NCBI RefSeq assembly: GCF_001677475.2
Contig: NZ_CP015229.1
Length of the DNA stretch: 64,000 bases
Direction: 5' to 3' (one strand)
Origin: Escherichia coli
Lineage (GTDB): Bacteria > Pseudomonadota > Gammaproteobacteria > Enterobacterales > Enterobacteriaceae
This document shows, one piece after another, positions 60,545-61,162 of this stretch. The position numbers and the translations under genes were made by a program. The notes beneath the pieces were generated by a model, which worked only from the letters and a program-made list of their open reading frames with translations, was not told the origin of the DNA and searched no databases. Position 1 is the stretch's first letter. Each line of letters opens with the position of its first letter.

Positions 60545-61162
60545 AACTCGCCCTTTGTCATAGACGTGCTGCGTATTGTTCAGATAATGAGAATCCATTT
60601 GTATCATGAAGCACGGTTGTTTTGCGGTAGGTTAAGATCAAAATTGCGCTGATTAATCCTGGTTATCGGGAGAAGCTCGGTGATAAAAAGCGAATTATCT
60701 CTCGTCGCAAACAAATTATCACATGAATATTATCACTATAATGAATTTATTGTTTAGCCTTTACGAATCAGGATAAAAGATAACTGGGCGCGTTTTTTAA
60801 TTTTTACAAGTTAAAACTATCAGATTTTATTGAATAAATATTGATTGTGTGATTTTTCATTCTGTGGGAAGGGATATCAGTTAATTATAAATTAAATGAA
60901 TGAGAATTCTGTTTTCTATTAAGTATTTCTAACAACTTAATGTAGATATTTTAAATGTCTCCAGGCTATTTCACCAGGTTATCATTTGATGCTAACCTTC
61001 TGACACATGCAGTGGAGTTGTTGTGCAGCAGGAGTATGCTGATATGAAAGTGAATGCTAAGGATAATTTATTCGCTTAATCTATTAATTTGCTGGAAACA
61101 TGTAAGGAATGAATATCCTGAATAAACCATCATGATTTTTAGACAGTGGATGTGGAGGAAAT

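Follow-up and report, generated by a model that had tools for sequence, protein, structure and literature searches.

Results and discussion

The 618 bp that separate yjjP from yjjQ-bglJ in this Escherichia coli chromosome are very probably a control region shared by two divergent units, yjjP and yjjQ-bglJ, that is silenced by H-NS and relieved by LeuO. Silencing of the yjjP / yjjQ-bglJ region by H-NS is already known and has been described since 2008. In the window, by which we mean the whole 64-kb stretch of DNA that was analyzed, we found that the spacer is orthologous to its K-12 counterpart, that it is AT-rich and conserved close to its promoters, and that its low GC is kept despite turnover of the sequence itself. 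The spacer is divergent promoter and silencer DNA rather than the 600-nt transcript leader as which a sequence-only reading had labeled it.

Position and boundaries of the spacer

Positions 60545-61162 are exactly the 618-bp spacer between the divergent genes yjjP (minus strand) and yjjQ-bglJ (plus strand), according to the RefSeq annotation of the closest complete genome and of K-12 MG1655. The AT-rich intergenic region of roughly 600 nt that had been noticed upstream of yjjQ from the letters alone was therefore correct in its coordinates to the base, and its GC content is 33.2%. In the last 8 kb of the window, dnaC, dnaT, yjjB and yjjP lie on the minus strand and yjjQ and bglJ on the plus strand, followed by fhuF, yjjZ and three tRNA-Leu genes. 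The gene order dnaC-dnaT-yjjB-yjjP<>yjjQ-bglJ-fhuF-yjjZ-leuVPQ is common to the window, the closest RefSeq genome and K-12. The spacer and the genes that bound it are as follows:

59774-60544, minus strand: yjjP, 256 aa, ThrE-family exporter (RefSeq annotation)
60545-61162, no strand assigned: yjjP / yjjQ-bglJ divergent intergenic control region, GC 33.2% (RefSeq boundaries and composition)
61163-61888, plus strand: yjjQ, 241 aa, LuxR/GerE-type HTH regulator (open reading frame list, RefSeq, PF00196 on homologs)
61846-62523, plus strand: bglJ, 225 aa, second operon gene, with a 43-nt overlap with yjjQ (open reading frame list, RefSeq)

The list of open reading frames offers an alternative in-frame ATG for yjjP at 60607, which would give a YjjP of 277 aa and a spacer of 555 bp. 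We favor the start at 60544 because it is accompanied by a Shine-Dalgarno-like AAGGG, because the resulting N-terminus, MQ(T/E)EQ, is conserved across genera, and because the gene call in E. albertii agrees with it. No feature is annotated inside the spacer in K-12 or in the other RefSeq genomes inspected.

Of the 5426 complete E. coli genomes, 5423 carry the spacer, in almost every case as a single full-length copy; at least 13 of these 5423 genomes are missing a full-length spacer. The copy in the window aligns with that of K-12 without gaps over 618 bp and with 24 differences (96% identity), and the strain is not K-12. Adding 4,542,314 to a position in the spacer gives the corresponding K-12 coordinate. 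Among the 5,426 complete RefSeq E. coli genomes, the closest match to the spacer reaches 99.2%. Judged by its sequence, the spacer is the ortholog of the yjjP / yjjQ-bglJ control region of K-12. For four pieces of the window (the spacer and three other segments), identity to any of the 5,426 RefSeq E. coli genomes did not exceed 99.4%. The strain of the window, or its lineage, is probably absent from that set.

Base composition

The GC content of the spacer is 33.2%, as compared with 49.6% for the whole 64-kb window. The lowest values measured over 100 bp, 22-27%, fall at 60750-60900, within a core of 26% GC at about 60700-60930. Six-base runs of A/T are about 4-fold denser in the spacer than in the window (105 versus 28 per kb), and TpA steps about 2-fold (89 versus 48 per kb). 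This composition is unusual, yet it is not unique in the window: 3.4% of all 618-bp segments in the 64 kb are equally GC-poor, and these fall within about five further low-GC stretches.

GC-poor stretches elsewhere in the window lie chiefly at 1-1340, 13.3-16.1 kb, near 27 kb and at 32.5-34.2 kb; minima in the three islands described next are 28-32%. The island at 1-1340 corresponds to yjiC-iraD and includes the small genes idlP, ytiC and ytiD. That at 13300-16100 is a variable block that carries genes for pentapeptide-repeat and SdiA-regulated-domain proteins and is present at full length in only 600 of the 5426 genomes. That at 32500-34200 is the end of the restriction 'immigration control' region that runs from hsdR (EcoAI family) to yjiA, with matches in 1079 genomes. 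These three islands are likely to be further H-NS targets. Separately, the fhuF-yjjZ promoter region together with yjjZ (63200-63799) differs from K-12 at 7-12 positions per 200 bp, against 0-8 elsewhere, and GC drops to 37.5% at 63300-63499.

Sequence variation within E. coli

We compared the spacer and its flanks in nine strains, namely the window strain, K-12 and seven RefSeq genomes drawn from different levels of the ranking by identity to the spacer. Choosing strains by spacer identity enriches for divergence but leaves the contrast within the region unaffected. The variable columns are distributed as follows:

60245-60544, yjjP 5' coding sequence: 13 of 300 columns variable
60545-60671, yjjP-proximal spacer: 1 of 127
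60672-60928, AT-rich hypervariable core, GC 27% here: 46 of 259
60929-61162, yjjQ-proximal spacer: 7 of 234
61163-61462, yjjQ 5' coding sequence: 5 of 300

Among these nine strains, the core thus holds 46 variable columns out of 259, versus 8 out of 361 for the remainder of the spacer (Fisher p about 1e-11), while the two flanks, with 0.8% and 3.0% variable sites, vary less than the yjjP coding sequence (4.3%). Core variation runs in lineage-like haplotypes, and the GC content of the core is 27-32% in all nine strains. The same contrast is seen between the window and K-12, which differ at 9.5% of positions in 60700-60930 (22 of 231) versus 2.1% over the 8.3-kb locus. Core polymorphism probably explains why the spacer has served as a host-informative marker locus (PMC11267920). 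Passages of a study of H-NS binding across strains state that H-NS-bound positions are conserved and that H-NS-bound intergenic sequence upstream of genes evolves faster than unbound sequence (PMC4720273); the core at 60672-60928 resembles those bound regions in its fast turnover.

Comparison across genera

We aligned the E. coli locus with those of E. albertii, Salmonella enterica, Citrobacter rodentium and Klebsiella michiganensis. In each of these four, the DNA upstream of yjjQ has a GC content of 33-37%, versus 47-52% for the locus. In C. rodentium and K. michiganensis, genes for a FAD-dependent monooxygenase and an AraC-type regulator stand between yjjP and yjjQ (L011:636-2738 and L013:646-2722, respectively), and an AT-rich stretch of 262-278 bp (GC 34-37%) is kept upstream of yjjQ despite the intervening genes. 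The core (60701-60919) shares 53% identity with that of E. albertii and is effectively unalignable, whereas the two flanks reach 77% and 87%; the E. albertii core has a GC content of 22-33%. It appears that low GC, and not sequence, is maintained in the core, as binding of H-NS driven by composition predicts. Because core GC is kept while the sequence turns over, such binding would fit better than sequence-specific binding.

A block at the edge of the core, upstream of the promoter candidate of yjjQ, is conserved in part:

60920-60975, no strand assigned: TTTCTAA...AATGTAGAT...TTTAAATGT (cluster of invariant columns in the five-genus alignment)

In the adjoining sequence, 60929-61095, the nine E. 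coli strains differ at a single site. The block could be the site of a regulator, possibly LeuO, or a second promoter. We also considered an architecture that goes beyond simple silencing, in which the block would bind a physiological inducer of yjjQ-bglJ and the core haplotypes would tune silencing by host or niche. Tuning by niche would fit the host-informative marker use (PMC11267920) and the adaptive IS insertions seen in the gut (PMC5094792), but we consider this architecture unlikely.

Promoters and the question of a leader

In the promoter-proximal parts of the spacer, we identified the following elements:

60545-60671, minus strand: yjjP-proximal conserved part, with the yjjP ribosome-binding site, 5' UTR and probably the promoter region (1 of 127 positions variable in nine strains)
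61039-61067, plus strand: sigma-70-type promoter candidate of yjjQ-bglJ, CTGATA-17-GATAAT (promoter scan)
61154-61165, plus strand: Shine-Dalgarno sequence GGAGGA and the yjjQ ATG (direct sequence reading; GGAGG and ATG invariant in five genera)

Identical hexamers, CTGATA-17-GATAAT, are predicted for yjjQ-bglJ in the RpoD SELEX table (PMC3946193). Five bases of AGGATAAT (G61061, G61062, A61063, T61064 and A61066) do not vary across the alignment, which covers E. coli, E. albertii, Salmonella, C. rodentium and K. michiganensis. Because the candidate matches the promoter consensus and is conserved, we infer that transcription of yjjQ starts near 61074, which would leave a 5' UTR of about 90 nt. 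A promoter this close to the ATG (about 100 bp) would leave the greater part of the spacer as untranscribed control DNA shared with yjjP. On the yjjP side, GGTTAAGATCAA at about 60631-60642 is common to E. coli, E. albertii and Salmonella, and two promoter-like sites on the minus strand, 60722-60694 and 60756-60729, lie just past the conserved part; both are consensus matches only.

If the spacer were instead a long transcribed 5' leader of yjjQ-bglJ with control at the RNA level (a riboswitch, attenuator or leader peptide), its unusual length would be accounted for, and the wording of the sequence-only reading points the same way. A search of both strands of the spacer against Rfam returned no match up to E=1, and a scan found no terminator-like site in it. 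Predicted RNA folding was not more stable than that of shuffled sequences, either for 61074-61185 (z = +0.35) or for all 618 nt (z = +1.28), and the repeats in the spacer are short pairs only, probably due to chance. The hypervariable central 250 bp are incompatible with a conserved RNA structure, and the promoter candidate, with a -10 element conserved across genera, is only about 100 bp from the ATG. A 30-codon open reading frame at 60955-61047 (plus strand), which is uninterrupted in E. coli as well as in E. albertii, would favor a leader. We rejected it as a leader peptide or gene: it has no Shine-Dalgarno sequence, it is disrupted by stops in Salmonella, Citrobacter and Klebsiella, and between the two Escherichia species its amino-acid identity is about 50% at a nucleotide identity of 87%. 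We therefore hold a transcribed leader to be extremely improbable, and the label of leader was dropped.

Another way to account for the length of the spacer is an unannotated gene for a small RNA or small protein. Promoter-like matches on the two strands of the spacer number 7, versus 3.5 expected, and there are short open reading frames of 30-40 codons; promoter-like hexamers are, however, to be expected in AT-rich DNA. K-12 and the RefSeq genomes inspected carry no annotation there, Rfam and terminator searches of the spacer were negative, and the sole open reading frame in the conserved part is disrupted outside Escherichia. The chance of such a gene seems to us close to negligible.

Silencing by H-NS and relief by LeuO

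The literature shows repression of the locus by H-NS, occupancy by H-NS in vivo and activation by LeuO. The silencing of yjjQ-bglJ in K-12, which the sequence-only reading had stated, is borne out by two publications (PMC5025477, PMC3950696) and by ChAP-seq and SELEX tables. A passage in the first, citing Stratmann et al. 2008, states that H-NS represses and LeuO activates yjjQ-bglJ, and that repression holds the locus in an OFF state (PMC5025477). The second, in a passage citing the same work, describes yjjQ-bglJ as repressed by H-NS under standard conditions, with LeuO as the only known activator; in that study bglJ was deleted in an hns stpA strain since the operon 'would otherwise be expressed' (PMC3950696).

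H-NS ChIP data had been proposed as a check on silencing, and a published ChAP-seq table for K-12, SE11 and SE15, which are strains other than that of the window, marks both sides of the spacer as bound. Its S2 Table reads TRUE for yjjP (unit yjjP) and for bglJ (unit yjjQ-bglJ), and FALSE for dnaC, dnaT and yjjB of the same neighborhood (PMC4720273). The spacer itself was not found under the names yjjP, yjjQ or bglJ in the supplementary files of that study, including its table of intergenic regions. The RpoD genomic SELEX table carries an 'HNS' flag on the yjjP<>yjjQ spacer (PMC3946193). The H-NS interpretation of the spacer is thus supported, by reporter and expression experiments from K-12 and by ChAP-seq from K-12, SE11 and SE15, and we infer that the strain of the window, which is none of these, behaves as K-12 does.

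The sequence-only reading had gone further and proposed an H-NS nucleation region, which agrees with the AT-rich composition but finds no counterpart in a discrete high-affinity motif, as the spacer holds no close match to one. The sequence TCGATAAATT is a high-affinity H-NS motif, which is not strictly required for H-NS binding. Within the spacer, no site has one mismatch or fewer to TCGATAAATT; the best matches, at 61080, 60744 and 60824, have 2 mismatches each. Looser matches were not above the level in dinucleotide shuffles, with 3 versus 2.1 at up to 2 mismatches and 17 versus 13.1 at up to 3, so that base composition by itself accounts for their number. The sequence supports a role for the spacer as what would be a good H-NS substrate, without pinpointing a nucleation site.

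In K-12 the intergenic region is reportedly 555 bp long, with H-NS bound at its AT-rich center, distal to both promoters, and LeuO sites are said to lie at the center and to overlap the yjjP promoter. A length of 555 bp is what is obtained when the spacer is counted from the ATG at 60607. We take 60672-60928 to be the candidate center of H-NS binding.

Regulation might then proceed as follows. H-NS would bind the very AT-rich center, at about 60700-60930, and by spreading or bridging would form a nucleoprotein complex over both promoters, which would be off in ordinary growth. The LysR-type regulator LeuO, itself silenced by H-NS, would bind the region and relieve the repression. Transcription of yjjQ-bglJ would probably be driven by the sigma-70 promoter (61039-67), which precedes the ATG by about 100 bp.

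Insertions in the spacer

In E. coli 203740 (NZ_CP025913.1; L009:3001-4016), nearly all of the spacer, along with the 5' part of yjjQ, is replaced by IS1, and bglJ is intact just downstream. This allele is the counterpart in nature of transposon alleles from the laboratory with constitutive expression of bglJ. During evolution in the mouse gut, IS insertions recurred in the yjjP/yjjQ spacer; in air they led to a roughly two-fold rise in yjjP expression, and in competitions in vivo their effect was either neutral or beneficial (PMC5094792). Insertions of this kind, both natural and from gut evolution, are typical of silenced AT-rich control regions.

These insertions also bear on whether the spacer is neutral AT-rich filler, such as a scar bordering yjjQ-bglJ DNA acquired in the distant past, to which H-NS would bind incidentally without controlling the genes. 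The poor conservation of the core is what neutral sequence would show, other genes stand between yjjP and yjjQ in Citrobacter and Klebsiella, and yjjQ and bglJ, at 45% GC, are both flagged as candidates for horizontal transfer (PMC4720273 S2 Table). Filler would not, however, be expected to change expression and fitness when IS elements enter it (PMC5094792), nor to be bordered by promoter-proximal flanks that are more conserved than the yjjP coding sequence. All five genera have low GC ahead of yjjQ, even with a different upstream neighbor, and published work ascribes the silence of yjjQ-bglJ to H-NS and its relief to LeuO (PMC5025477, PMC3950696). We regard neutral filler as very unlikely, and a silenced control region as the reading to retain.

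Significance and comparison with known systems

BglJ (with RcsB) and YjjQ regulate motility, capsule, the bgl genes and leuO, and the silencer region decides whether this circuit fires. What the present analysis adds is a map of conserved and hypervariable sub-regions on the strain of the window, evidence that low GC rather than sequence is maintained, and a correction of the leader label to that of a divergent promoter and silencer region. It adds, too, that IS elements strike the spacer both in nature and in published gut-evolution experiments.

The closest known system is the K-12 region itself (Stratmann, Madhusudan and Schnetz 2008, J Bacteriol 190:926), with which the window shares the gene order, the length of 618 bp and the promoter-proximal sequence, including CTGATA-17-GATAAT; the core of the window is slightly more AT-rich, with a GC content of 27% versus 31% over 60672-60928. 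The control region of the E. coli bgl operon is alike in being AT-rich, bound by H-NS, silent in the laboratory, relieved by LeuO and activated by IS elements (PMC2646131, PMC9678765). The two sequences are unrelated, and bgl, unlike the yjjP/yjjQ spacer, has upstream and downstream (intragenic) H-NS sites and a CRP-dependent promoter, whereas the yjjP/yjjQ silencer sits between two divergent promoters.
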